NCBI GenBank assembly: GCA_018824145.1
Contig: JAHJHC010000041.1
Span: forward strand, 1 to 55,211
DNA: 55,211 nucleotides
Direction: 5' to 3'
Source of the DNA: Candidatus Omnitrophota bacterium
Lineage (GTDB): Bacteria > Omnitrophota > Gorgyraeia > Gorgyraeales > Gorgyraeaceae
Shown: positions 11,701 to 30,556 of the stretch, one piece after another
Layout: each line of letters begins with the position of its first letter
Numbering within the stretch: the stretch's first letter is position 1
Position numbers and translations under genes: made by a program
The notes under the pieces: generated by a model
Seen by the model: only the letters and a program-made list of their open reading frames with translations
Told to the model about the DNA's origin: nothing
The model's database searches: none

Positions 11701-14700
11701 CAGGAGTCCAAGAGAATATCATTTTGCAGTAAGGATGCTTTTTGTCGGCCTTCTTGGAGTTAAGAAAGCCCCTGTAGGGATAAAAGGAGTAGATAAAACT
11801 TTAGCTGATTTAATTACACCTGATGAGGTTAGTTGCTATTCGTTGGAAGAGCTCGGCGGTATTTTAGGTCTTGCCTTTAGGTCAGGTGCAAGTGTGACAA
11901 AATTAGAAGAGCGCATGGGGCTACCCCAGTATACAAAACTTACTCAGGGAATCGTAGCATTAGTCGATGATGTAAAATGGCTGGTAGTAGATCGTGTAAA
12001 GACGTTAACCGAAAAAGGCAGGCCAGCAATAGAGGCGTTTTTAAAAGATACGGCAGTACCAGTATATGGCCGTGCCATGTTTTTATTTGGCATTTTTAGA
12101 TTAGCGTCAGGTGAAGGATCAAGGTTGAGTGCCGAAAATTGGACTGATTGGGTTGAAAGTGGGATACTGGAAGATTGGGAATACGATTGTTTAAATGAAG
12201 GTTCAGAGATTTTAGCAGGAAGTGAGCGAGGTGATTTTAGTATAGACTCCTCTACTAGTTGGCACGCCTTTATGGCTAATGAGCAATATCCTGCTGAATA
12301 TAAGATAGTCTTATTGGAATGTGTAATTAAAGAAGCTGAAGGGAAAGAAGATACTCTTTTACATTTGGAAGCGCTCTGCACCATGTTAAAGATATATACG
12401 GATTCCCAAAATACAGTTAGTTTAGAACGGGTCAGCCAAGAGATTATTAGCCTTGTCTATGGATTGGATATAGAGAGGGTGCGCTCTTTATTACCCGGAA
12501 TGAGCGATGTTACAAGAAACAACACTATTTTAATAATAGAAAACCGCATGAGATTTTATGAACTTATGTTTAACCGGATGGGTAAGTGGCGTAGAAAAAT
12601 GCCGGTTTTAGCCGAATTCTTAAGACATGCCTTGTTACTAAGAGAAGCATATTTAAGCTTAGGTGGAGCAGGAATAGAAAAAGTTGATGGGGTAGTTGAT
12701 AGAGTAACAGAGGTACTTATAGAGCTGGATGAGACAAATTTAAAAGTTCTTTTTCAGCAAGATACATTTAAAGGAGAACCTGGGATAAAGATTATGCTGC
12801 TTTCGATACTTAGAGAAATAGACCTGGGCTTTCTCAATGGAGTGTTGATTAGCAGTACCCTGACAGGTGATATTAGGATTCCTCTTTTAACTGACCCGAG
12901 CCCAGAAGTTCGGGAGTTAGTTACAGAGATTCTTAGCCAGACAGATAGAGGTAGGCAAGCACTAGAGTCTATTGGGCAGGCTGAGGCTCCTAATTTCGAT
13001 GATGATGATGGGGCTATTGTTGAAGATAGAGCAGCAGGGGTCATGATGGGCGTGGGTGCCATTGGAGGAGTGCAGGATTTTCTTAGCCGGGGTGTGAAGG
13101 ATTTTATTGTGCAGGGACAGGACGTTTTTCCGGATATTTTATCTTTCAACTGGTGGATGTGGGTTGTTGGTTTTGGTGCGTTGTTTGTTGGATTTTTGAT
13201 TTTAAGGCCTTATTTACAGCAGCATAATTATAAGCTAGTCCCGGCAATTAGAGATTATCTTAGGGATATGATGGGGCAAAGACTACGTCTTGCTGGAATA
13301 TGGGGTGACGGAATAAAAACTATAAAGGCTGTTTTTATTGGGCCTGAAAAGAAAACGGTTTCTTCTACTGGTTTAGTAGGGATTACAGTGGCAGCAGTCT
13401 TATTAACCGCAGGCCTTGCCGGGCCTGTAGCGGTCGGGGCTTTAGGTCTTTTGGTGGCATTAGGCGTAGTTTCTGTAATATATTCACGCGCTCCGCCAAT
13501 TAGAAGATTCGCTTTGATTGGAATACCTCTCGTCTTTTTAGTCTTACCATTGTTTGCCGCACAGCCTGTCCTATCAGCACCATTATCTGATATTCCCTCT
13601 TCTTTGACCCAGATATCCTCATTGATGAATTTTGATTGGCCATCCTGGGGCAATAGGCTATTGAAAATAACATTGAAATTTTCCATAGTACTTATTGCAT
13701 TGCGCATCTATTGGGTTGTAGCACAACATTCGTTAGCTGTTTTACAGCGTTCGTCAAAGGTTGAAATACCTAAGCCACGGTATAGAGCAGATATTACAGT
13801 TACTGGCACACCCGGTTTCGAACATATAGATCCATTTGACGCAATGGTGCCGCTACCTCCTTCCTTTCCCGGGGAGAGCAGGTGGAGGGTGGAGGGAGAT
13901 GTACAAGAATTGTTGAATGAGACTGGGATACGGCTCGCTGGCGGACGACGAATAGTCTGGGGAATAGAGGTTAAAGCTCTTGTTGATCTGGCATTTAAGA
14001 GAAAGGGATTAGAGGCTCATCGAATCCGTATCAGGGGGTGGCAGGGAATTGGGCTTGTAATTGTGGTTATTAGGGGGTTATTGTTGGTTGGTGTTGGTGT
14101 GTTATTAGCTCTCGGAATCAAATGGGGATTTACCCAGATTGACCAGCTGTTACCTCTTGCCGGACAAGCAGGGATAAACACTCTGACTTTGGTGTCGCTA
14201 GGCAGTACAGTGTTGACGGCCTTACCCCTTGGAGTGGCAATGATGGCGGCTGAAGATGTAGAAAATACACGCCTGAAGGCACGAGCGGGAACAAGTAGAG
14301 GAGGAGCACCAGATAAGCATTCCAGCGGGCAGATGGCATGGGTAAAGGAATGGCTGGAAACACATGGAGTTGAGGTAACGCCGAATAAATGGTTAAAGAC
14401 CGAAGAAGATATTACTCTACTTGGGTTACTTGGAGTAGTCGCGGGCGTAGGGATTATTTTCGTGGCTAGTAATCTTTTCTCACTCGGCTTTTTAAGCGGA
14501 ATAACTGCTTTAGGCTTGCCATTGGCTTTAGTGATAGGAAGTATTTTGTATTTTCCATTTTCACGCTTCATAGCGTTTATAGGCGGTCACTTTTTTGACG
14601 GCTGGAGACATGGGTTAAAGAATATGGGTGCGGCAGCCAATATTAGTGCAGTGGGAGTAGCTATAGGATTTATTGTTAATGGTTTAATTTTAGGTGGAGT

Positions 14701-17700
14701 TGGCTTTATAGGTGCTCAATTTGTACCTGGTATTTTAGTTAGCGTACTTACCTCTCCTTTAGTAGCGCTCATATCAATTCCAGTGATTTTGGTCTTTTAT
14801 GTTTCTCTGCTAGTAACCCACCACAAGATGAATTACAGGGCCCTTTCTTTAGCTGAAAATTTAGCTAAAAAAAGAGATGCGCTTTTGGAAAAGCTTTTAG
14901 TCAAATATGACTTTCCAAAAATGGAGCAGGATACAAGGGTGGAGTTTAGGTCGGCTGAAAAAACGGCGGGTGAAATGAGCGAAAAAGAACTCGCCATCAA
15001 AAAAGAGATTGACTTAGCGATTGGAAAAGAGAGGCCATCGGTTCAAGATAGAAAAACCGCATGGTCAAATGTATTGGGAGAACAATTTGAAGATATAGTT
15101 CCTCTTAGCCTCTGCCAAAGGCTGGTTAATTGCTATTTTTCTGAGGATGAGAGGAACAATTATTTCGATGCCGGCGCATTAAGAGTAATTCAAAGAGAGA
15201 TACCGATATTTAGCATTGATTTTATTGCCATTCTCATCGCGAATTCGGGAAATCCTATCCAGGTATTGTTAAGCCTAAAAGACATGCTTGATGCATTAGA
15301 TAAGCAATCAGGGGTATTGGAAACTTATGTAAAGAGGATGGATTTAAGAGATATCTATAGGGACGCTAGCAGAGTTTTCTGGTCGGCACATGATAGGGGG
15401 AGTCAGATAGGAGATGAAGACGCATTAGACTTACTCCGTAAGAGGCGACCAACTCATCCGGCATTGATCAACTGGGCAAAATTAGTTTTGTATCGGGTAA
15501 GTGGTTCTGGTAAGAGAGGACAGGCCTTGATCGCGAACGCATTACTTTTGGGTGGCGTAGTAATAGGATTAGGCATGGCTGCGTATCTTACAGGGGTTGA
15601 TACGAATAGCCTGGTGCATATCGTCCAGGTAAGCAGTAATTTTCTTTTGAGGGCAGCGCCGTATCTGGCGGTAATTAGTAGTATTGGAGTGGCAGTGGTG
15701 GCGGCTGGACTGCAGAGGAAGGGATTAACAGCTGAGGACTATCCAGATATAGGGGTTTTGCAAGAAGGAGGTGTGCCAATAGATGAAGGATCAAATGGCA
15801 GAGGATATGGTAAAGGAACGGATGCATTACCTGGTTTGGAAAGCCATGCTCTTGCACTAATGCTTATAGAGGCACAGCGAGATTTGCAAAGGCAATTATC
15901 TGCTTTGACTAAGAGAGATGTTTTGATATTGAGGTGGATAGCTGAAGGATGGACTTATAAAGAAATAGGGATAAAACTATCCATTAGCCGAGGAACGATA
16001 GCAAACCGTGGGTCTCTAATTTTGCATAAATTGGGAGTTTTGAATCGCGCTGCAGCAGTAATAAAGGCAATAGAAAACGGTATAATGGAAAGACCAGAGA
16101 TTCACTATAATAGAGATAATATTAGAAGACTTATCCCAATGGAAGTAAGGGTACTGCCTTATCTGGCAAGAGGTATGACTAATTTAGAGATATCACAAGA
16201 ACTTGGAATTACGGAAGGGACAGTAAGTACCCGTGTAAGTTCTCTTATACAGAAACTTAAAGGGAGTGATGAGAATGAGTTTCGAGTCAAAATCGTGAAT
16301 AGGATTCAGGTAGCAATCGTCGCTCCTGAAGTGATAAAACTTTATGAGGAACAAGAGGAACAAGACGATGGGCTGCTTCCCTTGGAAATTGAAATTCTTA
16401 AGCTGTTAGTACAAGGCAAGACTAATCCAGAGATAGTAGAAAACTTACATATCACAGAAGGCAGAGTTAGAAAACGTATAACTGCAATTTTAAGAAAGCT
16501 TGGTGTAGGAAATCGTGTAGCAACAGCAATTGAGGCAGTTAAGATGGGATTGGTGGAGAGACCAGAAGAGATTTCCTATTGTGAAATCGGAGCTAAAGAA
16601 CTTACTCCAAGAGAATTAGATGTACTGTCTTGTCTGGCAAAAGGCTTGACCAATCCACAGATAGCGCAAAAACTTGGAATTGGTAGAGATACTCTCCGAA
16701 ATTATATTAGTTTTATCAGAAGTAAGCTAGGGTTGAATAAAAGAGTGTATGTAGCACTGGCTGCTCCGGAAGTGATAGAAAGTCTCCAGAGACCTCAAGG
16801 TAGGACTATCGGGATCCCTATACCTTCAACTGATGAAAGGCCCGGGGCTGTTAGTTTCGCTATTGCCATGGTAGGTGGTATTTTAAATCTAGTTATAAGA
16901 CCCTTCATAGATATGCGGAGAAATGTGATAGATATAGAACGTGAATATAGGGTAAAATCCGTTTTAGCTCAAGACCCTGCAAGCGTTCACTATTACGATG
17001 GCTTGGCAGAGAAAATGGCTTCTTATGGAGAATACTATTCAAGTATGATAAGGAAATGTTTCTTGATAGGGGCCTCAGTTTTTATATTGTTGGTTATTTT
17101 GGTAACACTTTGTGCCAATAGTTTAGCAGGGGTATCTCAACCTGTGCCTTTGCCTGTTTCGCTGTCTGGCTTAGGGTTAGGGTTGCCAGGATTAGTAGGC
17201 GCCATGGCTGTCTTATCTCCGGCTAGTTCATTGGAACCTATAGAACGAGTATCTTTTCTAGAGTTAGTTAATAGATATAGGAGTGCAAGAAAAGAAACGG
17301 TAGCTCTTCCTTCTTTAGAGGGTCTATCGAGAAAGGCAGGAATAGTACTCATTACCCGAAATCAATCCACCAGAAAACACATGATAGATCTCTTAGCTAA
17401 TAGCAAAATAAGTGGGATATCTGTTCTTGGATTATCCCAAGGAGATAATGGTAGCCTGTTTAAAATACGGCAAGCTATTGAGACGTGGATGAAACAAAGC
17501 AGATCTTCTCATCTCAGGATTATTGTTATAGACATGGACGGTACTGAAATGAAGGTATACTTTTTAGAATTTGGCAGGGATACAAATGTCCAATTGCAAA
17601 TTATATCTATGCGGCCTTTAGCTACTATGGCTGCTGGAATAGTATTTGGTGTTATTGGTGTTAAAGGAAAACTTGAGAGAGTAGATCGAAATTTACAAGG

Positions 17701-20700
17701 AATATCAAAAGGAATTCTTGAAATCGGGATTGAATTTATAGATATACTGATTTTACGATTGGTTGCAAAAAACTTATCCTATCCAGAGATAGCAAAAGCA
17801 TTATTTATCGAAAAGATAGAAGTTGGAAACCGTGTGCGTTTAATTGTAGATAAGCTAAAGGCCTCAGACTGCTGTCAAGCAGTGCTTATTGCAGTTAAGA
17901 AAGGGATAATAGAGAGACCAGCAATTGACTATTACAAAGATGGTGTTTGGGATCTTGATAAACCAGAGACAAAAGTGTTAGCTCTTTTGGGAAGAGGTTT
18001 AACCAATCAAGAGATAGCAGACAATTTGGGGGTTCAGGTACAAACTATACGCTTTTATATCTCTGGTATTTTAGGAAAACTTTTTCTGGAGAAGAGATTT
18101 CAAGCAGGACTGGTTGCTTCAGAAGTCTTAACTGTTCTGGGATTGCCTGCGACGTATCCCGATGAACCAGGATATGATGGAGGGAGCGGATTAGCCAATA
18201 GAAATATAAATGCAATGATTATGGCCGTGGGTGGCTCCAATCTGCTCGGCAAGATGCAGCCATTTAGCGAGGGGCTTACTAAACAATGGGTTCATGGGAT
18301 CCCTGACTTGGTAATCGTCTTGGGGGCACTGGCACTCGCTTTTGTGGCAGTTCGCATAGGCGTTTTACTCTGGCAGAGATGGATGCGGAAACGTGCCGGG
18401 CCGGAACACTCATTTATACCTGAATCTCACCTTATGATGCAGCCATCCCGCCTGTCCTCTCTTTGGGCATCTGTGGTTTCTTTGTTTAAAAAAATTAAGC
18501 AAGTAGTCGACGCTCAGCCAGTATACGCTATTTTTGTCAGTATTCTCGCTATTGAAGCAGGACTTGGTATTATTTCTATCCTGTCGGGTAATTTACCGCA
18601 TAACCAGGCTAATGCAATCAGTGATTTTCTCAAACCTGCCTTGCTCGGTGGCGGGATATGGCTATTTGCCTCGACACGAAAAATGAAGCCTAGGCAATAT
18701 ATTATCACAGAGTCAGGTGGGGAAAAAGTTAATGTTATGGACGCCATCTTTGAAGGCCAGTTTACTCCAGAGATGGCTGAAAGACTCAGTGAAGGATTGT
18801 TGCTTCTTCCGATTCGAGAAGTTGAGGAGAGAGACCATACTGATGTTGAATATGCAGAAATCATAAATAGGGCACTCGATAGTGTACAGCGATGGGCAAG
18901 GCAAGGCGACCTTGATGCTGAAATACCAGAAGAGGGGAAAGGGTGGGTTTTTTCATACGAGGTAACAAGTGAATCTGCGAAGAGAGTGCGTCTTCGCGAA
19001 GTGGTGGAAACATTTCACGAGACACTCGGTTGGAGTAGGTCTAAACTGCACTCGTATTTATTAACTGACAAAGATAATCAAAGAGCTTTAAGCGCCAAGA
19101 GGGTGGCAAGGTCAGGGGGAGAAGGAAGAGTATGGGAGTTGAACAGAGAACTTGTCAATGCGCTGGCTGTAAAGGAGAGTAGATTTGTCCCTGTTCAATA
19201 TGCTTTGGATGAGTTAAGAGAGAGAGATCTCTATGTGACTGAAACAGAGTTTTTATCTTTAGTAAAGGAGATTGGATTTGTCTATTTAAAAGATGCTTTG
19301 GTTAGGTTAAGAGAGAACCAGATCAAAGTGACTGCAGAAGAGGTTTTATCTTTAGTAGACATAAAAACGCAAGCAGTAACAGGTGAATGGGGAGTTGATA
19401 TAGTGCATTTTGCTGAGATTGTAAAGAGATTGAAAGAAAAGAGGCAGATTATTGGGCCGGTAGATGAAGGTGGAGATATTATAACAGAAGGGGATATAGA
19501 TGCATTGAAAATTCTTTTTATCTCTCTTTATGCGGAAGACCGTATTTTACTGATTGAAAAGATTAACCGGGCCATAGAAGATGGTAGTATCCCTGATAAT
19601 CTTTTAGGTCCAGGTGGGGGAATAACTGAGTTTTTAGACTGGGTAGTAGACCAATATCCTGAACATCCTGATAAGTTAGGATCTTTAGATCGAGAGATTC
19701 GAGCAGAAGCAAGATACGCATGGTCAGTAGCCTATAAGTTTGGATTGGAGGATATAGATCAAAAAATATATATTCTTACTCATATGATTAAAATAGCCAT
19801 ACTTATAGGCAACACGCCTCAGGTTGAAGCATTGAATCAGAGACTTGAAACGTTACGACGAGAAAAGGAATTGAGAGATAAAGAAGCAATAGTACCTTCA
19901 CTTTTACCATTAGTATCCATGCATAGCGCAAAAAGGGAACCTCGTGAGGATGAAGAACTGTATGAGGAACTGACCTTGGATGAATATGAACCTATTAGTT
20001 TGTTCGCTGGCCTTACGCTGGGTGGATTGACAAACATGTTTGGTACCGATATCTTCAATCGCACTGATTTTAAACTTGATTTTAATTTTGGTTTTGATTC
20101 CGGGTCTATTTTATCAGGACTGACGCAGTATGTGCCACAGCAGTTGGATCTTTCGGCTATCTGGCAGACTGTTAGTGAGTTTAAGAGCAGCTTAACTACT
20201 TTACACTGGGTTGGGATTGGGGTGTTGGGCTTGCTTGGCGTCACTATATTGATGTCTATCATTTCCCAAAAGCTTTCAGCATTCCTTAGACATCCGTCTA
20301 CTATCCGCACTTTATTTCTTACGGGCATTGGCCTTTTGTTATATTCCATGGTTCCTCCTTCAGCCAGAAATTTCTTCGTTGCTATACTGACAGGTTACTA
20401 TGTTCTCACGCTTGGATTGATATACCGCTATACTATCAAAGCGGTTCGTAATATGAATGCAGAGAAGGATGAACTACGTATAAAGATTAAGGTATTAAAT
20501 GAAATATGTGAGAATGTTTCTAAGGATGATAGACTAATAAGGAAATTATTGGGTAGCGTAGAAAATGCATTAAATACGGCATTTTTCTCATATACGGAAG
20601 AAGAAATAAAAGAAACGCTGAAGAAATCTAAACGAGCCATGCGTTTTCTCCCATGGAGTTTATGGCTGGCAATACCTGCAATGCTATTCCTTATCGAGCC

Positions 20701-23700
20701 TATTGTCCCATATATTATTGACTTTAGCGCTTTTCTATATAGTTTTACACTTACCAATATTCAGCCATTTATTGCATCCATAGGCGTTCTTACATTTCTA
20801 TTGTCTTGTGTTGCGATTTTTTATCGAATCGGGAAAATATTATTTGGTCCCGATGCGGCATCAAAGAAATTTGACCGGTGCACGACTGTTTTGAGACGGG
20901 TCAGTCGAGTTACGTTTTTGCTTGTAGTTCCCGCCCTATCTTTAATTACGGCGTTTGTTATATTGATTCTATGGTTTGCTCCAGAATTTCTTACTGTACC
21001 AGTAAGTTCTCTCCTTATGATGTTGCTGGAAAGATTGGCTTTGATAGGTATAAACAGCCCTACCTTGATGTCGCTGGGCAGTACAGTGTTGACTGCCTTA
21101 CCCATAGGAGTGGCAATGGTTGTAGGAGATAGGGCTTTCACTGAAGATACGTCTGGAGCGGATGGTAGTAGAGTGGCGCCTGGCTCGACGGATTCTGCTT
21201 ACGATCCATTAGTGGCTACAGGGTATTTAGCTGCAAAGCTTACTCAAGAAGAGCGACTGGTATTTATTGGACTCCTTCGTGGATGGGTTGATGAACGACT
21301 TAAAGAAGAAATAGGTCTGGAATATACAACGTTGAGCCTCATATTAGGTACCCTCAACAATAAGCTTCTTTGGGAAGGTGGTTCACCACGGGAGAAGCTC
21401 ACCAAAGCAGGTATTTTAGGAATGGTAAAATCACCTTTGGAAACCAAGGAACAAGAAATACTCGAGGGATTCCTGCGTGGATTAAGGTATGAAGAAATAG
21501 CCAGAACGTATTACATAGCACTAAAATCGATAAGTTACTACGCTTCTGGTATAAGAGGGAAAATTCGACTAGAAAGAGAAACTGAATCCGAACATAAAAT
21601 GACAATTTTAAAGCTATTTTTAGCACGCGGGGTAATACCATCCAGGGGCATATATTGCAAGGTCACTGTTGAAATTCATCGCTGGCTCATTGAACATGGG
21701 TTTCTTGTATATCCTTTGAGGCCGGCTAGAGAGCAGCAAGGAAGTGATGTCCTGACTGCTGGGAAGCCACCTTTGAGTGCCATGGAGGCGCTTGTTCTTT
21801 ATTGGACTGTGCATGGGATATTATCCGATGGTGAAATGGCTGCGAGGTATGGAGTGAGTGAGGACAATATAAGTGTTTACCGTGCTACATGTAAGGAAAA
21901 AGTGTTTCCATTTCATCAAGGTTCGTTAAGGAGTAAACTCAGGCAGAATGGTCTACTGGAAGAAGGTGAAGCTGCTCAACGATTATTAGGTTTTAGTCTT
22001 CCTCCAGCGGTCCACAGGCAATTGTATTCGGGTCAATTAAGGATTCTTGAGGTCTTGAATCAGAGTCCACATCTTTCCAGAGAAGCCCTATCTAGATTGA
22101 CGGGGTTAGAACCTAATAGTGTAAGAACATATATATTTGGATTGTGCAAAGTTTTTGGGGTACCAAAGGGGCTTGTGCCTACTAAACGGAGAGATGCCCT
22201 CGTTCCTGCTGTATTTGGATTAGCAGATAGGAATATTTCTTCGACTAGAGATTCTGAAATAAAAGCATCTACAAGAAGAAGAACTGGTGCTAAAGAATAT
22301 GATGATGATTTCATAAGAAGAAAAACAAACGCAATGATTATGGCTTTGGGTGGCTCCAGTGTGCTCAATCAGGTACAGCCATTTGCTGAGGAGGCTACTA
22401 AACAATGGGTTCAGGGAATCCCTAACTTGGCAATCGTATTAGGGGCGCTGGCACTTGCTGTTGGTGTTGTTTGGCTGGTCAAAAATCTCCTCGACGACTA
22501 TACGAATCTTTGGCTGCCAGAGAAGATAGTGACTTTGAACGTAGAGATTCCTGTCGAGGTGGATGGTAAGATGCAATGGGTGGAGAAGAAAAGGAAGTAT
22601 GAATTAGTCAGACAGGTTGAACAAAGTGGATTTGCTGCCCAGGTTTGGGAGGCAAGGGTAGAGGGTACTGAGGAGAGAGTAGCCTTAAAGGTATTTCGAC
22701 CAATTGGCAAAAATGGAAAGATTCATAGGCAAAGTCGCATGTTGGCATTTCAGGATGCTAGGCCAAGCAGGGAAGAGGCTCAGATGGCAGTTTCTATGCG
22801 AAAGATTGCAGGTATTCTTACAAAATATCCTGAAATATACGAGCTTATGCTTGAGGAAGCAAGCGCGATTTATGGAGGAGAAAATAATGACGTAATGGGA
22901 AAACTGCAAGAGTTAAGAGATGGGATTGGGCCATCTCTTGTAACGCAGGCTAATGCTTATGGTTGGTCAGATGCACATAATGCATCATTCCTTGAATTAG
23001 AATGGGAAGATAATGTGAATACTGCACGGTATGGTTATTTTTCAGGCCTGCTTGATGAGGATATGCGTCTTCAAGCTCTCTTTATGCGTGCTTTTTGCAG
23101 GTTGCTTGAGAATATTGGTGCAGAGGGGTATATACCTCAGACTTATATAGGTAAGACTTTATTTGGTACATCTGAGCCAATAGGTATAAAGTATCAATTA
23201 GGCATAACAGCAGCAATGTTGGTTTCTTTAGCTACATTTTTCCTTACAAATTCTTGGCCTGTAACATTATTGCTTTCTGTCACAGTTCTTTTTGTCCTTG
23301 GTCATTCTGTCGGTGGTTCGTTTTTCTCCTGGGATAACATTTTCTGGAGTGGAAAACGAGGAATCGGTTTAAAGACTCTTGACCTTGAGCCAGGACTTCC
23401 GCGCGGTGGACCATTAGGTGGTATCCTTTGGCCAACATTTGTCCCGAGACTCTCTATTGCAGGTTTAGTAGTTTTGGCATCATTTTTTAGTGGGATTCCA
23501 TTTTATGTGGCTGGGTGTTGTGCCTTAGTCTTTTTGATTGTTACTTCGCCTGGATGGTTATTTCCTTTTGAGTTTGGTGCTGTAAGTAAAATGAAGAAGG
23601 CAGGTTTTGGTCCTAATTTAGGGGCGATGGATGTTGATGCTGCAGAGAGACATATCTCGGGTAATTATCAGGTTGCAGGAAATTATGATATTGATGAAGA

Positions 23701-26700
23701 AAAAATAAGCATGCCGCTTAGAGATTATCGTGAACTATTCTGGCACCTTGACCAATATAGAGAAGCACAAGAAGCTAATTCACGACGTCAGATTAATATC
23801 TGGAGTTATGGCTTAGATTTTATCCGTGACCAGGCACGTCGGGAAGCTATACGCGAGTTCAATATACAATACTGGCTGGATGAAGGTAGGATTTCCAGTA
23901 GCATGGCTACTTATCTGCAAAGTTGTCCTGCTCCAATATATTTCTTATATTGGTGTGAGAGTCATATACCTATAGTAGGCCGTGTGGTTGGCAATAGAGA
24001 CTATCGAGCTTCAATGCGTCGTTTATTTACTGACAGCGATTTCTTTAAAGAACGCTGGCATGCTTACCGTCAGGCAAAACTTGATAAGATGCATGCCCAA
24101 GGTAGGCTAGGAAAATCTTTATATAATAGCCTTTACCCAGTACTAGAAGTCAATGAATGGGTTGAATGGCCGAATAACCGCCAGTTTATCTTAAATGTAG
24201 CGCTTAGTTACTGTACTCCAAGCCCTATCCATCACTTTTTAGTTGACAGAACGTATCGGCAGGAGGCAGTGGATAAGTTCACCAGCCAAGTTTCTATTAT
24301 GGTAGGTCCTGTTGTAGGAATAGGGCTTTCGTTATTGATATGGCCGCTACTTCCTTCCAGGGAATTCTTTTGGGCACTGGTGGTTTCAGTTATTGGGAGT
24401 GTCGTTGGAGCAGTAGTTAGTATGAGATTTTCAGATATGAAGTTCTTAACGGAACGTTCTGAAGAGGCTGAAGAAGATTTCAAAGATTGGGTCAAGGAAG
24501 GAGCAGAACAGTATAGGATTACTGAATCTTGGCAGGAGAAATTATTGGGGTTACGGAATGAAAAAGTTATTCGTGATTATATTAAGATATATGGTGTGCA
24601 GTTAGCATCTAAACTTGTCGTCTGGTTATTGCGGATAATTTTAATGGGTAGCATATTTGTAATTACCGGTGAATTCAATGTTCTTTCTGGACTCTGGGCC
24701 TTTGCGATACCTAGTGCTATTTGGAGGACTGTTACTACTTTAATTGTTATACAAGATTATAGTTGGTGGGGCCGTTTGAGGTGTTTTTCTGTTGCTTTAC
24801 TATTTGGTATTCTTCCTATACCTGGATTAACGTATCTTACAATGCCTTTTCAGATGCTGGTTGGTCTTATATTTTTCCCAGAGCGTGACAAGTTGGCCTT
24901 CCTACTTATCTTTGAATGGGAGTCTTTGATCGAAAAAGCCTGGGGTAAAGTGCCTGGTTGGGGCAGGACGACCTTAGCGCTATATTATTGGAACCTATAT
25001 TTGGCCAGGATACCAATTATGTTTATTAAGAAGGTCTTTCGTAGAGATAAAAGTAAAGAAGTTGAATTAACGTATCCTAGTATTATTAGGGCAGATAGCA
25101 ATACACCAATTTTGACCCACCACATCACACCCGGAGAATTATATGTAACTTCTATAGCTACACTTATCCTTGGTCTTGTTCCATTTGTCTTAAAGGCTGC
25201 GTGTGGATGGGATGTCCCTGATATAGTTCCGTACGTAGCGCTGGTTTTGGGATTAGGGTTGTCAGGGTTTTTGGTGAGTTTGGCACGATCTATTCGTCGT
25301 ACACTTGATAATTTACCGAATACTGAGATACGTGCCGGGCCTATTGATATCTTGCTTAAGAAAAAATCAGAACAAGCAGAGCTTATTCCTCAATTCACTC
25401 AATCTGACCTTGTAAGACATGATGCAAAAGACCACATCGCCTACTATAGTCCAAAAGACAAAGCTATCCACATTAACCCTAAAGCACTTGCCCAATACAG
25501 AAACTCCATCCAACACCTAATCTGGATAAAGGAAAGAACCCAGCAGGGATTAAGATTACCTAGAGCTTTAAATGAGATTATATCTTATACATGGATGGTT
25601 TTATGTATTGTGCCGGTAGTGTTATACCATGGTGTATATCTGAGTATTTATTTTTCAATAATAGCAAGAAGAGAGGCACGACGTGAACGTGAACGTGAGG
25701 AAAAATTGATGGGCCGGCTTGATGAAGCTTTTGATGCCCTTTATAGTCACACACCTGTTATTGAAGGAAGGCAAACAAAGAGCGTTAAACATGCGAAAAG
25801 CTCTCTTCGTCGGTTAGTAGATAATAAGTGGAAAGGAGGAGATGCTGATAAGGTGTTAAGTTCTGAGCAACTTAATGAGCTTGAGAGAATGGCTTTTCTA
25901 ATAGAGAGATTTCGTACGTATAACGAGTCAAGATTCTTTAGAGGAAAGACCCCAATTATTTTAAATTTTGAAGAAGCAAGACTATTAGCTTTGATTGCAT
26001 GGTATCCTGAAGAAGATTTGAATATATCAGGCTTAGCTGAGAAGTTCGGTGAACCAAAGGACACAGTGGTGGGAATGGTTCGTGTTCTGAATAGGTATTT
26101 TGGTATTGAGGATTTGGCACGCAGAGTAGAGTTAAAGGAATTAAGAAAAAAATTACGAATGAATCTTGGTATAAGAGGTGAAGCACTAATTATTGGACAT
26201 GGGGTCTTGCCTAGTGAACTACCACAGACAGTAGCGGAAATTGACCCAGGATTCGGCGAATTAGCACGGATCTTCTCGGTGAAGCTCAGAGCACATCGAG
26301 AAGCAGGGATTGATCGGCCTTTTATAGTAATGGTGAAAGGAGCAGGTGGGGTAGGCAAGACGACATTGATTCGTGTAATGAAAGAACGTCTGGAAGAGAC
26401 TGGATTACAAGTCGCTGCACCAGATAAGGTGGCGAGTTGGGATATATTAGGTTACCGACCGTGGCCTAGCTATCAGTACATAGAAGAACAACATAGAGAT
26501 GCTGATGTAATATTATGTGAAGCCACAGATGTGTTACCACCAGCAGGTGATTACGTTGAATTTTTAGATTTGTTTGTTGAAGTTAGATCAGAAAGATCTG
26601 TCCGGAGAAAGAGAATGAGAGCTATGGGAGTTTCTGAACCAGAGACAGAACGGATAGTGAATTCTCGAGTAGCAGCTAATTATGAAGACCATCCGCCCGA

Positions 26701-29700
26701 TGTTGTCATTGTCAACGAGAAACCGGATAAGACATGGTTTAGAGCGGAAGAAATAGACAAGTTGATTGGAGACAATGTAAAATTCATTACGTCTATCCAA
26801 AGCCAGGGTGAAGTATCAGGAATATCTCAAGATACATTCTTACCTTTGGCTCAAAAGCTTCTGAAAGAACCAGCGGATAGAGTAGAAAAATTACAAGCTC
26901 TACTAAATACTGAGTTCCAAACCCTGATCAATCAACTTTCTGAGAGATTAGGCAGTGAACGGGCAATATGGCATATCTTGATGCGTTGGAACCAGACAGC
27001 AAGATTAGAAGGGGCAAAAGAGCTATCTGTTATTTTAGCTGGCAAGTGGTACCAAGAATTGGCAGCTATGGTAGCGGAGATCGAGTCGTTAAAAGCTAAA
27101 AGGATGCAAGTAGAAGGGGGCGATGTCAAAGGTGTTACAGGCTTACGGACTAGAACAGAAGATGAACACCACTTTATGATGTGGTCAGAAGATCCTGACC
27201 GTAATGGCACTAGTCCACATAAGGCAGAAGAATTCAGGTTTGACCCTGGAGATGTGCATATAGGAGATACAAACTATACATTTAGGAAAGAGCGGGGACC
27301 TACCTTTGAAGGTTTTCCAGAAACATCATCTAAAGATCGAAGATACCTTAACCGTTATTTGAAGAATTTGATTAAAGAGGTTAAAGCAGGTAGGCCTGTG
27401 CTTGTAGTTGTTTCTCCCCAGACAGCTGAGCAGATGAGAGAGTGGGCCAAAATTGGCTGGCTTAAACGAAGAGTAGAGCTACTTCTACAGGATGCCATTA
27501 TCGTAGAAAAGGAACTTCACTATGACTCTGTAACTGAATATTACACTGAGGCACAGAAAAGACTTGCCGCGAATAGTGGTCAGTCTGATAAACCTCCTTT
27601 AGTGGTAGGTATTGGTATGGGTACGGTTTGTGACTGGTCGAAAGTCATCGGTCATAAACTCGGAGTCAATGTTCATCTTATTGTGACTGCGACTTCAACG
27701 AATGCACCTTTTACTCCTAATATACTAATACGTGACGGGTCGGGAGATGATTTCCGGCAGTTTAGTTATATGACAGGTGCAGCTGAACAAGTCATTGCTG
27801 ATGCATCTTTAATGAGACTTAACCCGAGAGGTAATATTGCAGGGGCTGGGGATTTATTCAGTGGTTGGGTAGCGTTGCTCGATTGGATGTTAGCGGTTCA
27901 TCTTGGCGTTACTGAGATGACTGAGGAGGAGCGAGCTATATTTGAAGAAGCCCATGTAGTGTTAGAAGATTTGAGCTCTCTTGCTACTATCATTAAGGAT
28001 AATACTCCTAAAGGCATTGAAGAATCAGCGAGACTTGCTATGCGAATATCAGCGCTTATGAGCCGTGCGAGAAATGCAAGGCCAAAGGCTGGAAGCGATC
28101 ACTGCGTTGCCTACAGTATGGAGGTTCAGACACAGGGTAGAAAAATGCTTCATGGAGAGCAGGTTGGCATCTCAACTCTATTAATGCTTGCACTGTATCA
28201 TATTGATAAGGAAAACCTTGAAAGCGGAGATTTTCCCGTAGATCAACTTAACGAGCAATTTTTACAAGAACGAGGCCCATCTGCTATTGATGACCTTAAG
28301 GTATTCTTTGAGAGACTAGAAGAAAGACCTGAACTGTTTCCAAGTCTTGATGAAGCGCGAGACATGGTTCGAGATTTAGGACTTCCTGTATCACTGGGCG
28401 CCCTGGCTTTGGTGGATGGAGAGGAGGGTATGAGTGTTATTGAAGCCGTTGAATCTTTAGTTAAAACCCAGCTTGACGATCGTCGGTTCACTTATCTAAA
28501 CGTCTTTAAGATTACCGAAGAAAAAACTATCAGGGCTGTCGCAATGGTTCTAGGCTTGACACCTGAGGAGGTCTTAGCCAGACAGACAGATGAATTACTA
28601 TCAACCAGTGTACCAGAGGAAATTCCAGCTCCTTATAGAGACATACCTGATGCCTCTGATATTCCAGGATCCATTGATGATATTGCCAATAGAATAATCA
28701 GTGAATGCAGAGAAGGTAACTACGATTCATTGCATCTTGATTGGTCTAAGAAGATGTTCTTTTACCAGGAGTTTATAAAAGAGGCTGCAGCAATAAATAC
28801 TGCCATTAAGAGAATTATAGCATTTCCAGCAGAAGAACAAAGTCAATTTGCTAACTTCTCGGGTTTTCTTGAGGCTGCCATTGCAGCAAGACTTGATATG
28901 ATTAAGCGTTATCAAGCACCATTATCTACCAAAGGAGAGAATGCCGTAAGGTTACTTGAAAAGGCTGTACAGACAGAATCTATGGATCAGTATGTTAATG
29001 CTTATAGCACTCGTACTGAACTGCTCGGAGATGTATTAAAAACAGTTATGCTTCCTCCTGCTATGTGGTTTGTGCCTTTATTGGAAGGGGAAAGGAAGAA
29101 GATATATGAAGATAATATAAGGCAGAAAGAAGTAAAAGTAGCTGAAATAAGAAGAGAACAGAGTAGAGTTGTAGCTACGGATGGATGTTCTAGTCAATGC
29201 GACCACTGTGACATGGCAGCCACCTTTAGGGTTGTTTCTATGCCGTGGATATGGCTTGAACAGGCAAAAGATGAAGTAGGAGCACCAGAGGTTATGACCT
29301 ACAGGAATGACTTTTTTGTAGATTATTACGATATTATTTATGATACAGATGCGAGTGATGTTGTAGATTTATTTAATCCAGAAACTATATTTTCTGCTGT
29401 ATTTGTACCAGGTTCTGTAACGGATAGAGCTTTAGGGAGATTATTAGGGTCAGGAGAGGGGAAGAGAACATTTGTTTTAAGCGTTGCGCCGAGTGCTTGG
29501 ATGCGTAAAGTTGGCGTAGAGAAGTATTGTGAATATGCAGTGGCGATTAGAAATAGAATTACCGAATATAACGATATACAAAGAGGAGATAGGCCTAGAG
29601 TTACTTTCGCTTGTTGGTTGTTTTTATTTCAACGTAAAGACGAACCGGATTTGATTGATACTATAAGAACCTATATCTATCAAGGCATGAAATCTGAGGA

Positions 29701-30556
29701 GATTACCTTAGCATGGTTGGATCGACTGGGTAGATTTAAGCAATTAGAAAGATCTGGTGAGATAGATTCAAATACAGTAGTAAATGAAAATATGCCACCT
29801 GGGATGAACTTTGAAATATGCGATCTTGGACGACGCATGTTTCTTGCTGATGGACAAGTTGCGCAAGGCACAGTGGTTTCTGGAAGGCAGTTTTCGTTCG
29901 AAACTATCGAGGGATTAGGTCCTATAGGAAGAGAACGTATAAACTGCCCTTATTGCAAATCCTTGGATTGCAGAGGTGACACTGAAAAAGGATGCCCAGG
30001 ACGAGAAGAGTTTTTTGCTGCACAGGGTTTATCTCCTACTGGCGGCAGGCCAGCTGTTGTTCAAGCTGCAGGTTTCTTTGGGTTTGGTGGACTAGGTCGA
30101 TTTTTAGGGGAGACGCAAGTGAGTCCCTTGCAGGACTTCTTTACGCAAGGTATACAACCAGCCTTATCATGGCTTGGTTCTCATGAGGGGCTGTGGGTTA
30201 TTGTTGGGATTGGTGCGTTTGTTGTTGCAGGAGGGTTACTGATTTTAGGTTATTTGGCAGTTAGAAGAGGCTATCTAAAAATCAGAAAAATCAGGGACAC
30301 ATCCCAATTTCCTCATGGGGATTTACAACGGGAAAATTGGGCCCCGTCTCTAGTTCTCCCTTGGGTTGGATTCCCTACGGTTGGACTGATGTTGATTACT
30401 GGGATGTCAATTAAAAGTTTACCTCTTTTATTAATTGGGACACTTTTTGCTATCGGCCTTATGATTTTTATGCAGCGCGAAGAGATTAATTCGGGGACAG
30501 GTGACGAGCTTGATGGAATCATAAAAGGACACAAAAAAAATAGAGTGTGCTTGTAA
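47..30556 (+). CDS. Giant multi-domain polytopic membrane protein (>=10,169 aa); probably 5'-truncated by the window edge
   Basis: Single stop-free frame for 30.5 kb in AT-rich DNA. All other-frame and antisense ORFs inside it are short. Several recognisable domain motifs are in frame (J-domain HPD, LuxR HTHs, Walker A, DUF89 DNAGE, CxxxCxxC). The same frame is also open from nt 2 to the ATG at 47, and there is no GGAGG-type RBS before nt 47. Confidence 0.9.
2726..2930 (+). other. DnaJ-type J-domain inside the giant ORF
   Basis: [67 protein letters not shown] aligns almost position-for-position with the canonical J-domain, including the HPD tripeptide. Confidence 0.92.
4121..4250 (+). repeat. 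Junction module type B, copy at 4.1 kb ([10 protein letters not shown] ... W ... TM)
   Basis: [43 protein letters not shown]. The stretch tctattttatcaggactgacgcaacatgtgcca differs at only 2 of 33 nt from 20105-20137. Confidence 0.8.
5056..6180 (+). other. (alpha/alpha)6-barrel glucoamylase-like / DUF3131-GH144-like (beta-1,2-glucanase-type) region
   Basis: The ordered motifs [19 protein letters not shown] ... [26 protein letters not shown] ... [16 protein letters not shown] ... [10 protein letters not shown] ... [11 protein letters not shown] ... YGFGDSMD (6041-6058) ... [14 protein letters not shown] resemble the conserved helix-loop pattern of glucoamylase-like (alpha/alpha)6 domains. By-eye only. 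Confidence 0.45.
7740..8830 (+). other. DUF89/ARMT1-like (damage-control phosphatase family) module, motifs largely intact
   Basis: [17 protein letters not shown] (DNAGE at 8396-8410), VINDMT, and [10 protein letters not shown] (8690-8710) match the DUF89 pattern DNaGE ... ND.T ... KGqgNyE. A helical region of about 200 aa precedes it. Confidence 0.6.
9040..9610 (+). other. Left-handed beta-helix (hexapeptide-repeat, acyltransferase/GlmU-C-like) region
   Basis: Runs with hexad periodicity of small or aliphatic residues: [50 protein letters not shown] and [53 protein letters not shown]. Confidence 0.6.
9745..10840 (+). other. Second, degenerate DUF89-like module
   Basis: Same layout and spacing as the first copy but with altered motifs: [18 protein letters not shown] (NNAGE at 10400-10414), PIDDNYD instead of ND.T, and [11 protein letters not shown] instead of GQGN.E. 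Confidence 0.4.
14168..14258 (+). repeat. Conserved TM element type C, copy 1 ([14 protein letters not shown])
   Basis: [30 protein letters not shown]. The core gtcgctaggcagtacagtgttgacggccttacccc..ggagtggcaatg is nearly identical to 21067-21117. Confidence 0.85.
15905..16790 (+). other. Array of four tandem LuxR/GerE-type helix-turn-helix units
   Basis: Four consecutive ~63-aa units: [52 protein letters not shown]; [43 protein letters not shown]; [52 protein letters not shown]; [45 protein letters not shown]. Each matches L(T/S)xRExxVLxLxaxGxtNxEIAxxLxISxxTVxxHxxxIxxKLgv. Confidence 0.85.
17735..18135 (+). other. Array of two LuxR/GerE-type HTH units
   Basis: [54 protein letters not shown] and [53 protein letters not shown]. 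Confidence 0.7.
18209..18385 (+). repeat. Junction module type A, copy 1 ([10 protein letters not shown]...QPF...KQWV.GIP + TM)
   Basis: [48 protein letters not shown]. About four-fifths of nucleotides are identical to 22328-22477 in a hand alignment over ~150 nt. Confidence 0.85.
20102..20270 (+). repeat. Junction module type B, copy at 20.1 kb
   Basis: [24 protein letters not shown]...[21 protein letters not shown]. The window start ([29 protein letters not shown], nt 2-110) looks like a third, partial copy. Confidence 0.8.
21043..21133 (+). repeat. Conserved TM element type C, copy 2
   Basis: [30 protein letters not shown]. About 5 mismatches in 51 nt versus copy 1 by hand alignment. Confidence 0.85.
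21239..22175 (+). other. Array of about four divergent LuxR/GerE-like HTH units
   Basis: [43 protein letters not shown]; [43 protein letters not shown]; [44 protein letters not shown]; [47 protein letters not shown]. The pattern is retained, but several consensus residues are lost. Confidence 0.5.
22328..22492 (+). repeat. Junction module type A, copy 2
   Basis: [48 protein letters not shown]. Paralogous to 18209-18385 at both protein and nucleotide level. Confidence 0.85.
22590..23020 (+). other. ABC1/UbiB-like atypical-kinase N-lobe motif
   Basis: [31 protein letters not shown] resembles the ABC1/UbiB signature (aaSiaQVh.A.l..G..VAVKVqrP); the Lys is at 22688-22690. The downstream [10 protein letters not shown] resembles rVLtmEwi.G. 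The rest of a kinase fold is not clear. Confidence 0.35.
26320..26730 (+). other. P-loop nucleoside/nucleotide-kinase-like module (Udk/PRK-type layout)
   Basis: Walker A GAGGVGKT at 26339-26362 follows a hydrophobic strand (FIVMVK). [12 protein letters not shown] is a Walker-B-like strand. [20 protein letters not shown] resembles the Udk/PRK 'ifvd.d.d.rl.RRi.Rd' segment. Confidence 0.55.
27225..28510 (+). other. Glycerol-1-phosphate dehydrogenase / glycerol dehydrogenase-like (Fe-ADH/DHQS superfamily) module
   Basis: [10 protein letters not shown] ... [40 protein letters not shown] ... [36 protein letters not shown] ... [11 protein letters not shown] ... [14 protein letters not shown] (28151-28168). 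The order and spacing match the G1PDH/GldA pattern (GGG..D.aK ... vPT.aS.dg ... D...i..aP......aG.GD......DW ... H ... HGe.Vg). Confidence 0.55.
29150..30000 (+). other. Radical-SAM-like module (CxxxCxxC) with a C-terminal Cys cluster
   Basis: [18 protein letters not shown] contains C-x3-C-x2-C at 29186-29209 in a typical strand-loop context. About 250 aa later, [21 protein letters not shown] gives C-x2-C-x4-C-x7-C. No other radical-SAM motif could be verified by eye. Confidence 0.35.

Follow-up and report, generated by a model that had tools for sequence, protein, structure and literature searches.

The 55,211-nucleotide stretch analyzed here (contig JAHJHC010000041.1 of GenBank assembly GCA_018824145.1, labelled Candidatus Omnitrophota; hereafter the window) raises the question of what a run of enzyme-like domains is doing late in a membrane protein of more than 10,000 residues, and whether these domains act together. 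A single open reading frame (ORF) at 47..30556 on the + strand dominates the window and encodes 10,169 amino acids, or at least this number if the gene extends further; the ORF list, a Kyte-Doolittle hydropathy scan and Pfam searches identify its product as a polytopic membrane protein with 74 transmembrane (TM)-like segments. All parts of this protein described below lie on the same strand, and nucleotide coordinates are those of the window. According to the hydropathy scan, residues 8540-10048 (25664..30190) are free of TM segments, and it is this soluble stretch of ~1,500 residues that hosts the domains in question. The first-pass annotation had placed it at the C-terminus of the protein; the soluble stretch is indeed there, but because 3-4 further TM-like segments follow it (residues 10049-10145) it represents a late loop and not the true C-terminus.

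We favor, with a probability of about 60%, the reading that this loop forms a mosaic of enzyme-type domains that were recruited independently and have diverged strongly, rather than a conserved pathway cassette. Under this reading the loop, ~1,500 residues long and facing the cytoplasm, would carry three units within a polytopic giant protein of at least 10,169 residues. The first would be a small P-loop NTPase domain whose motif order resembles that of nucleoside and nucleotide kinases, and the second a dehydrogenase descended from the glycerol-1-phosphate dehydrogenase (G1PDH; EgsA/AraM) branch of the GldA/Fe-ADH/DHQS-like superfamily. The third would belong to an unnamed, always membrane-tethered Cys-rich family (GCSxQCDHC...DYYD...GS...GR...CxxCx4Cx7C...GLSxTGG) that recurs as a building block in giant proteins of the Omnitrophota type. 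This domain is most likely a far-diverged radical S-adenosylmethionine (SAM) domain, in which a [4Fe-4S] cluster would be bound by three Cys, and an auxiliary cluster or a metal by the Cys cluster at the C-terminus.

The dehydrogenase module spans residues ~9085-9485 (27299..28501) and was delineated using NCBIfam, the PDB and sequence alignment. The top family is the NCBIfam G1PDH model NF002022 (E 3.2e-23, 82.3 bits, profile positions 24-287 of 350), and the GldA model NF006941 scores about half as high (E 4.8e-11, 42.1 bits, where the cut-off is 336). Searches of the PDB give the same ranking: the best matches are the G1PDH structures of M. jannaschii (4RGQ/4RFL, E 2e-16, 63 bits), followed by another G1PDH (5FB3, E 3e-12, 49.5 bits) and by T. 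maritima GldA (1KQ3, E 7e-9, 38 bits). Two other relatives of this superfamily were considered as the closest family and set aside: DHQS gave no match, and the score of the generic Fe-ADH family is only 25 bits. The G1PDH/glycerol dehydrogenase-type module that had earlier been proposed at 27225-28510 is borne out, together with its GAGD, SDH and LHGE motifs, its replacement of GGG by GMG and its putative metal ligands.

A residue-level comparison of the module with 77 references, namely one retrieved standalone G1PDH (P0001) and 76 metagenomic G1PDH sequences, showed that it retains 26 of the 37 columns invariant in the references. These include the Asp/His/His metal triad, consisting of D9269 (27851-27853, in the motif AGAGD at 27839-27853), H9352 (28100-28102, in RPKAGSDH at 28079-28102, which includes GSDH) and H9369 (28151-28153, in LHGEQVG at 28148-28168), all of which fall in columns that are 100% invariant across the references and align with 4RGQ. 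We assign the roles of residues beyond this triad from the alignment and general knowledge. Also retained are D-x2-K after the glycine loop, LDW (within LLDWMLA, 27875-27895), RP-x2-GS(D/E)H, P-x-R and R-x-T-x-L. The two halves of the module differ in their affinities. The N-terminal half looks GldA-like: it can be aligned to GldA without the gap that alignment to M. jannaschii G1PDH requires, and its TATSTNAP (27686-27709) corresponds to TIASTDAP of T. maritima GldA. In contrast, the C-terminal helical half carries signatures of the G1PDH type and not of the GldA type, with LLDWMLA and RPKAGSDH kept and other positions changed. The likeness to GldA comprises the same metal triad and the T-x-x-S-T-(D/N)-A-P motif, and the module differs from GldA in the Asn that stands for the Asp of STDAP and in its far lower score with the GldA model than with that of G1PDH.

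The likeness to G1PDH, the best family by both profile and PDB searches, includes the triad, D-x2-K, LDW, RPxxGS(D/E)H, LHGEQVG and R-x-T-x-L. Nevertheless, the module departs from G1PDH at the dinucleotide site and beyond. In the 12-residue glycine loop (27608-27643) GGG is replaced by GIGMG, with M9191 as the altered residue, and S(H/N)DG is replaced by STNA, with N9219 and A9220; the reference columns at these three positions are 100% G, D and G, respectively. Likewise, SGSEHxFSH has become AGSDHCVAY, with Ala for Ser448, Asp for Glu and Tyr for the second His. The setting is also different: all 80 metagenomic G1PDH relatives that were retrieved are encoded by standalone ORFs (301-544 amino acids from stop to stop, at most 32% identity), whereas the window copy is embedded in a membrane protein of 10,000 residues. 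Some of the scores weigh against the assignment as well, namely the 82.3 bits with NF002022 against a curated cut-off of 413, and the Pfam matches that fall just below threshold (PF13685, Fe-ADH_2, 24.0 against 28 bits; PF00465, 25.3 against 31.3 bits). The dehydrogenase belongs to the G1PDH/GldA group and is nearest to G1PDH; most likely it has kept the ability to bind a divalent metal together with a small polyol or ketose (phosphate), and its turnover of NAD(P)H is uncertain.

The Cys-rich module, which had been noted earlier as a radical-SAM-like unit with a CxxxCxxC motif, occupies residues 9542-10009 (28670..30073) and was characterized using HMMER, BLAST and multiple alignments. It begins with a helical N-terminal subdomain (~28670-29110), which is followed by CSSQCDHC (29186-29209), NDFFVDYYD (29306-29332), APSAWMR (29486-29506), a 20-residue C-terminal Cys segment (29945-30004) and GLSPTGG (30026-30046). 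CSSQCDHC is the sole CxxxCxxC of the giant protein, and when the whole protein is shuffled with its composition kept, this pattern turns up in only 0.2% of cases. With residues ~9637-10048 as the query, an exhaustive HMMER search of 1.84 billion representatives recovered 34 relatives (clusters at 50% identity), eight of them with E<1e-30, and the BLAST extent defines a homologous unit of ~460 amino acids. A word-index search with a profile of the module returned four proteins. The relatives are of two kinds, either standalone proteins of 350-560 amino acids with a signal-peptide-like N-terminus or internal modules of proteins of 2,600-6,500 amino acids. A GTDB-wide scan with conserved family peptides located 17 loci, mostly in metagenome-assembled genomes labelled Omnitrophota or "Planctomycetia"; in 11 of these the module lies in an ORF that is open across the whole fetched locus (up to 7,100 amino acids), and most of the other giant ORFs with the module have a TM helix 290-350 residues after the CxxxCxxC, as in the window.

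Within the 13 close sequences of alignment A2, the invariant positions are G-C-x3-C-D-H-C, P-W-x-W, D-Y-x-D, G-S and G-R, and the near-invariant ones are three Cys of the C-terminal CxxC...C-x-G-R cluster and the GG of GLSxTGG. The three Cys of the CxxxCxxC motif are invariant in all aligned family members, both in A2 (13/13) and in the broader alignment A5 (15/15). The C-terminal Cys motif has the form Cx2Cx4Cx7C; in the close subfamily three of its Cys are near-invariant, and the distant members lack the cluster. The close subfamily matches nothing in Pfam, NCBIfam or the PDB even at E<=10, and in particular its 13 members show no match to SPASM or Fer4 at this threshold; the SPASM motif Cx2Cx5Cx3C does not occur in them. 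In the low-confidence AlphaFold model of the module the helical N-terminal subdomain is the only confidently modelled part, four beta-alpha units are predicted after the Cys motif, and a Foldseek search with the model gave no match at E<=0.001.

The standalone members (P0002, P0003, P0008, P0011; L008, L009) start with a Sec-signal-like hydrophobic segment and have no twin-arginine motif; a conserved LSP[AF][IL]xIN follows the hydrophobic start, and the proteins end in GLSxxGG and a short tail. Their genes are monocistronic and have uninformative neighbors. A further feature of several giant proteins of this set (L007, L012, L015; P0005, P0007, P0010, P0004) is the pentapeptide S[SA]SP[LVMI], which is found 4-15 times per protein, as opposed to at most 0.14 expected upon shuffling, and in many cases lies next to the Cys-rich module. 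This motif, which may serve as a linker or as "punctuation" for processing, is absent from the giant protein of the window.

Whether this family belongs to the radical SAM superfamily can be approached through its distant members. Nine of these (P0015, P0016, P0018, P0024, P0028, P0029, P0032, P0033 and P0035), which are connected to the window module with E values of 2e-10 to 4e-4, display CxxxCx(Y/F/W/H)C after a beta-strand-like hNhT(K/W)G (where 'h' is a hydrophobic residue). Nine of ten distant members match the Radical_SAM model PF04055 from profile position 1-3 (E 2e-5, 25 bits, to 0.79); all these matches are below the 29.5-bit cut-off, and four of the alignments reach positions 112-149. 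Of their 20 weak NCBIfam matches, 17 are to radical SAM families, with many peptide maturases. When a broad profile derived from A5 was compared to the PDB, YydG (with CNASCDHC) and QueE provided four of the five best sequences (E ~0.08-0.1), the top sequence being a SorC-family regulator (E 0.079), and the YydG alignment spans beta1, the cluster loop, alpha1 and beta2. The likeness to radical SAM enzymes (PF04055; YydG, 8AI3; QueE, 5TGS) includes the CxxxCx(H/aromatic)C after a hydrophobic strand, the C-D-H-C ending shared with YydG and the beta/alpha periodicity past the motif in the low-confidence model; from our reading of the sequence, we also take the C-terminal CxxCx4Cx7C to resemble the auxiliary-cluster motifs of SPASM/twitch domains. 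On the other hand, the family has an extra N-terminal helical domain of ~140 residues, lacks GGE and is always membrane-tethered.

Several observations weigh against placing the module in this superfamily. The window module and its 12 closest relatives show no Radical_SAM or SPASM match at E<=10, and hhalign comparisons to two genuine radical SAM sequences align only 25-29 columns around the Cys motif, with a probability of ~25%. In place of the absent GGE motif, the aligned position has (N/S/G)D-x-(F/L) followed by (R/K)DYYD, which is NDFFVDYYD in the window. The window copy has Val at a Gly that is near-invariant in the family (SAVF as against TSGF). Moreover, both AlphaFold models are unusable, that of the Cys-rich module (5 sequences) having a mean predicted local distance difference test (pLDDT) score of 51.7, with ~25 around the Cys motif, and that of the preceding domains from the HTH-like segment to the dehydrogenase (2 sequences in the alignment) a mean of 36.5. 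Finally, the Sec-like N-terminus of the standalone members predicts a periplasmic domain, which is a poor fit for an Fe-S/SAM enzyme.

These points lend some weight to the alternative that the module is an extracytoplasmic, or metal- or disulfide-stabilized, domain that shares the Cys spacing of radical SAM enzymes by chance, as its 13 close members lack Radical_SAM and SPASM matches, the hhalign similarity is limited to the motif, the standalone members have Sec-like N-termini that lack a twin-arginine signal, and GGE is wanting. This alternative is less easily reconciled with the canonical motif and PF04055 matches of the distant members, with their NCBIfam matches almost only to radical SAM families and with the presence of YydG and QueE among the top PDB matches of the broad profile. 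It also sits poorly with the position of the window module in the same TM-free stretch as NAD- and ATP-type domains, and with a comparable arrangement in P0019, where HAD and HEAT domains occupy the same TM-free stretch as the module. We accordingly retain the chance resemblance as a serious but lesser possibility, and regard the radical SAM assignment as probable, its support being transitive but not conclusive: the CxxxCxxC motif reported earlier is present and the transitive link to Radical_SAM accompanies it, while no direct family match is seen. Separate radical SAM-type domains coexist with the module in some giant proteins, such as residues 1409-1556 of P0009, which match PF04055 with E 5e-12, and the region around residue ~4055 of the L022 giant ORF, which displays CPLQCRHC followed by SGGD (motif only).

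The remaining unit, the putative P-loop domain (residues ~8755-8905; 26309..26761), was recognized from its motifs and from sub-threshold hidden Markov model (HMM) matches. Its Walker A motif GAGGVGKT lies at 26339-26362, exactly where it had been reported, and is preceded by the strand FIVMV and followed by a helix. Our reading of the sequence adds a Walker-B-like VILCEA (26507-26524), an Arg-rich 21-residue segment of the form D-h-F-V-E-x6-RR-x-R (26567-26629) and a final hhhhN strand, DVVIVN (26699-26716). The Walker A pattern by itself is found in 29% of composition-preserving shuffles of the whole protein. All HMM matches are sub-threshold and span only ~35-50 residues around Walker A. 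The Pfam match to AAA_16 has E 1.7e-4 (22.6 bits, against a cut-off of 32.6), and the weak NCBIfam matches, confined to Walker A, are mostly to small-molecule kinases with E 0.04-0.15, including models for uridine kinase (0.099), phosphoribulokinase (0.15) and PanK (0.095), each over ~30-35 residues. Pfam PRK was not reported among the matches to the domain, no family-level HMM match beyond Walker A was obtained for Udk/PRK-type kinases, and in the PDB only FtsY P-loop sequences were matched, with E>0.2. A STAND/LAL-type ATPase was considered and rejected, as the AAA_16 match is to Walker A only and the domain is ~150 residues long.

The structural model has pLDDT <50 in this region; the predicted succession of a strand, the P-loop, a helix and strands at VILCE and VVIV is compatible with an NTPase fold. 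In comparison to the Udk/PRK kinases (e.g. the uridine kinase PRK05480 and the phosphoribulokinase PRK07429), the domain has Walker A after a hydrophobic strand, an hhhhE(A/G) Walker-B-like strand, the Arg-rich segment and the final hhhhN strand in a kinase-like order, but it is short, at ~150 residues, and alignment to the models is restricted to the Walker A region. Thus, of the Udk/PRK-type module proposed earlier the Walker A motif stands, while the typing as Udk/PRK comes from a motif order seen by eye, and the domain is best described as a P-loop NTPase, possibly a small kinase. The HTH-like (helix-turn-helix) unit that the first-pass annotation had placed at the start of the stretch has fared less well. 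The 27-residue segment in question (residues 8660-8686; 26024..26104), unverified as such a unit, has a weak similarity to one internal GerE repeat with an E of only ~7-9, gives no match with an HMM derived from eight such repeats and is left without statistical support, though helices are predicted there with low confidence (pLDDT ~55-60). Between the P-loop domain and the dehydrogenase lies a linker of residues ~8900-9084 (26745..27298) that is of low complexity, is predicted with low confidence to form long helices and has no family match in Pfam or NCBIfam.

To judge whether these modules act together we turn to their distribution. At the 17 GTDB loci, no homologue of the dehydrogenase or the P-loop domain (query residues 8540-9540) was found within 10 kb of other copies of the Cys-rich module. 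Among the 35 retrieved proteins the dehydrogenase is matched only by the standalone G1PDH P0001, which is also the one G1PDH returned by a word-index search with the dehydrogenase alone, and the P-loop domain by none. No relative of the P-loop domain or the linker was found among the retrieved proteins and giant ORFs, and no close relatives of the segment comprising the P-loop domain and the dehydrogenase in GTDB genomes or JGI metagenomes. A word-index search with the whole cassette returned nothing, and a search for an internal paralogue of it within the giant protein found none. Instead, the proteins that bear the Cys-rich module contain other co-resident domains, such as HAD and HEAT (P0019), ATP-grasp elsewhere in P0007, a genuine Radical_SAM domain and HEAT elsewhere in P0009, and HTH arrays in P0016.

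This distribution bears directly on the proposal of the first-pass annotation that a kinase, a polyol-phosphate dehydrogenase and a radical enzyme are covalently coupled for making or modifying a lipid or envelope component. Stated fully, the three domains would act in sequence at the membrane on a glycerol- or polyol-phosphate lipid or envelope component, for instance a backbone of the glycerol-1-phosphate type. The affinity of the dehydrogenase to G1PDH, with its metal ligands and G1PDH-type C-terminal signatures kept, and the presence of three modules on one TM-free stretch attached to membrane helices are consistent with such a scheme. Furthermore, radical SAM enzymes remodel the membrane-spanning lipids of both archaea and bacteria. 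Nonetheless, neither the 34 relatives nor the 17 GTDB loci of the Cys-rich family show the three modules together, the scans of GTDB genomes and JGI metagenomes recovered no conserved orthologue of the cassette, the dinucleotide loop is changed at invariant positions, lipid radical SAM structures are absent from the PDB matches of the module profiles at E<=10, the assignment of the kinase is unproven, and the neighboring genes are devoted to sugar catabolism. Given that the modules never co-occur and that the downstream genes are those of sugar catabolism, the coupled lipid pathway is unsupported; nothing found here shows either a coupled pathway or lipid synthesis, and we consider such a scheme distinctly unlikely. 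Its most specific form, in which a membrane-tethered G1PDH-derived domain would make a glycerol-1-phosphate-type or related polyol-phosphate backbone and the radical-SAM-like domain would remodel the product in place, appears to us highly improbable; if true, it would mean that a PVC-related bacterium builds archaeal-type membrane components by means of a giant protein.

Another idea is that the dehydrogenase, and perhaps the P-loop domain and the Cys-rich module, are catalytically dead relics kept for ligand-binding, regulatory or structural roles. Several features speak for this, including the GMG, STNA and AGSDHCVAY changes, all at positions invariant in the 77 references, the Val found in the Cys-rich module where the family has a near-invariant Gly, and scores far under every curated cut-off; the literature also describes the domains of giant proteins as highly divergent (bioRxiv 10.1101/2023.11.21.568195). 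However, the dehydrogenase preserves all three metal ligands and 26/37 of the reference-invariant columns, among them LHGEQVG, D-x2-K, P-x-R and R-x-T-x-L, and in the close subfamily of the Cys-rich module the three cluster Cys are invariant together with a D and an H. This pattern of retention looks like selection on an active site rather than on the fold alone, and we hold a loss of activity to be doubtful. Within the mosaic that we prefer, the analysis establishes the continuity of the ORF, the TM-free stretch, the homologies, the conserved residues, the distribution of the Cys-rich family and the failure of the modules to co-occur, whereas the cytoplasmic side of the loop, the binding of cofactors and any catalysis are inferred.

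The orientation of the loop is suggested by its flanks. Directly after the TM segment of residues 8521-8539 the soluble stretch opens with an R/K-rich flank of 14 residues, and at its other end hydropathy and sequence reading point to a hydrophobic hairpin (30053..30247) that consists of a weak segment (residues 10003-10021) and the TM segment of residues 10049-10067, the latter being followed by an 11-residue basic cluster. By the positive-inside rule, this would correspond to a hairpin with the loop on the cytoplasmic side. The R/K-rich flank, the basic cluster after the hairpin and the cytoplasm-type domains detected elsewhere in the protein by Pfam (DnaJ, ARMT1-like and GerE HTH arrays) together suggest a cytoplasmic location. 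It should be noted, as a point against the interpretation of the loop as a set of intracellular enzyme domains, that this membrane orientation is deduced from charge bias and domain types only.

As the sequence derives from a metagenome and the ORF runs open into the contig edge on its 5' side, one might also ask whether the giant ORF or its module junctions arose from misassembly or fused gene calls. The frame, however, is open across 30.5 kb, and every domain match is in one frame. In addition, the same DNA is present in the NCBI assembly GCA_018812485.1 (contig JAHJDO010000137.1) and in the Logan assembly of SRR2544004, with 99.98-99.99% identity over the covered parts; the NCBI contig spans the window from 27312 onward, so that nearly the whole dehydrogenase and everything after it in the gene, including the junction of this domain with the Cys-rich module, are covered. 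Because two independent assemblies agree, misassembly is unlikely, and an artefact of either type seems scarcely credible. Window bases 2-46, which precede the ATG at 47, contain no in-frame stop, and the window begins at the contig edge; the giant gene may therefore be longer than 10,169 codons and continue upstream of this edge.

Other regions of the giant protein contain further recognizable domains. These include a DnaJ J-domain (residues 894-956; 2726-2914; Pfam E 3e-24), an ARMT1-like damage-control phosphatase domain (residues 2579-2896; 7781-8734; Pfam E 7e-36) and eight GerE/LuxR-type HTH units with sigma-70 region 4 matches (residues 5281-6026 and 7058-7185; 15887-18124 and 21218-21601). 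In P0016 (four HTH_8, HTH_30 and HTH_1) and P0018 (sigma70_r4_2), too, the Cys-rich module comes after HTH arrays. Two short internal repeats of ~70% identity, both beside TM segments, pair residues 4709-4736 with 7001-7028 (14171-14254 and 21047-21130) and residues 6052-6098 with 7425-7471 (18200-18340 and 22319-22459), and suggest segmental duplication within the giant gene.

The genes downstream (30721-55025) are all on the same strand, as are all plausible genes of the window, and code for a sugar ABC transporter, a ROK regulator/kinase, GH42, two GH94 phosphorylases, GH57, an outer-membrane protein (OMP) beta-barrel, two GH99-like proteins (one with GH71 and CBM9), a two-component system (a TPR-HisKA kinase and an OmpR-type regulator) and a 1,268-residue FG-GAP/PQQ propeller protein. 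This neighborhood is concerned with sugar uptake and with glycoside hydrolases and phosphorylases, and not with lipid synthesis. The GC skew is positive in all 2-kb bins of the window (+0.11 to +0.39), and minus-strand ORFs of 150-203 amino acids within the giant gene (e.g. 25747-26358) look like chance ORFs.

For the protein as a whole, the closest known systems are giant proteins of Omnitrophota and neighboring PVC phyla that are rich in TM segments and in which highly diverged metabolic and regulatory domains are tiled (bioRxiv 10.1101/2023.11.21.568195; 10.64898/2026.06.07.730766), which include the "Archaeovorins" described by West-Roberts et al. 2023 (bioRxiv 10.1101/2023.11.21.568195) and a class termed "multi-enzyme metabolic cluster" (bioRxiv 10.64898/2026.06.07.730766). 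Radical_SAM is among the common domains of such giants, and localization predictions for them are unreliable according to both preprints (10.1101/2023.11.21.568195; 10.64898/2026.06.07.730766), the main texts of which do not mention a G1PDH or Fe-ADH-type domain. The window protein resembles these giants in its length of more than 10,000 residues, its dozens of TM helices and its mosaic of diverged enzyme domains, and it shares the Cys-rich module with giant ORFs of Omnitrophota. It differs from them in its G1PDH-type domain and in lacking the S[SA]SP[LVMI] motif seen in some of the giants, while the SecA_DEAD and SecA preprotein-binding domains, which are present in most of them, are not among the Pfam matches of the whole window protein. 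A further difference is taxonomic, as the genome of the matching assembly GCA_018812485.1 has been placed in a separate lineage of uncultivated bacteria, with the placeholder name JAHJDO01, in an undefined phylum near the PVC group (PMC12057145).

If the domain calls hold, this placement would imply that TM-anchored giants tiled with diverged enzymes reach a phylum-level lineage outside Omnitrophota, and the G1PDH-lineage dehydrogenase, a member of a family relevant to the lipid divide between archaea and bacteria, would be a new domain type in the repertoire of giant proteins. The comparison also brings out a previously unnamed membrane-tethered, radical-SAM-like family of ~460 residues (34 clusters at 50% identity, 17 GTDB species) that is invisible to sequence searches of Pfam, NCBIfam and the PDB. 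As a recurrent module of giant ORFs, this is a family whose function could illuminate what the giant proteins of these bacteria do.

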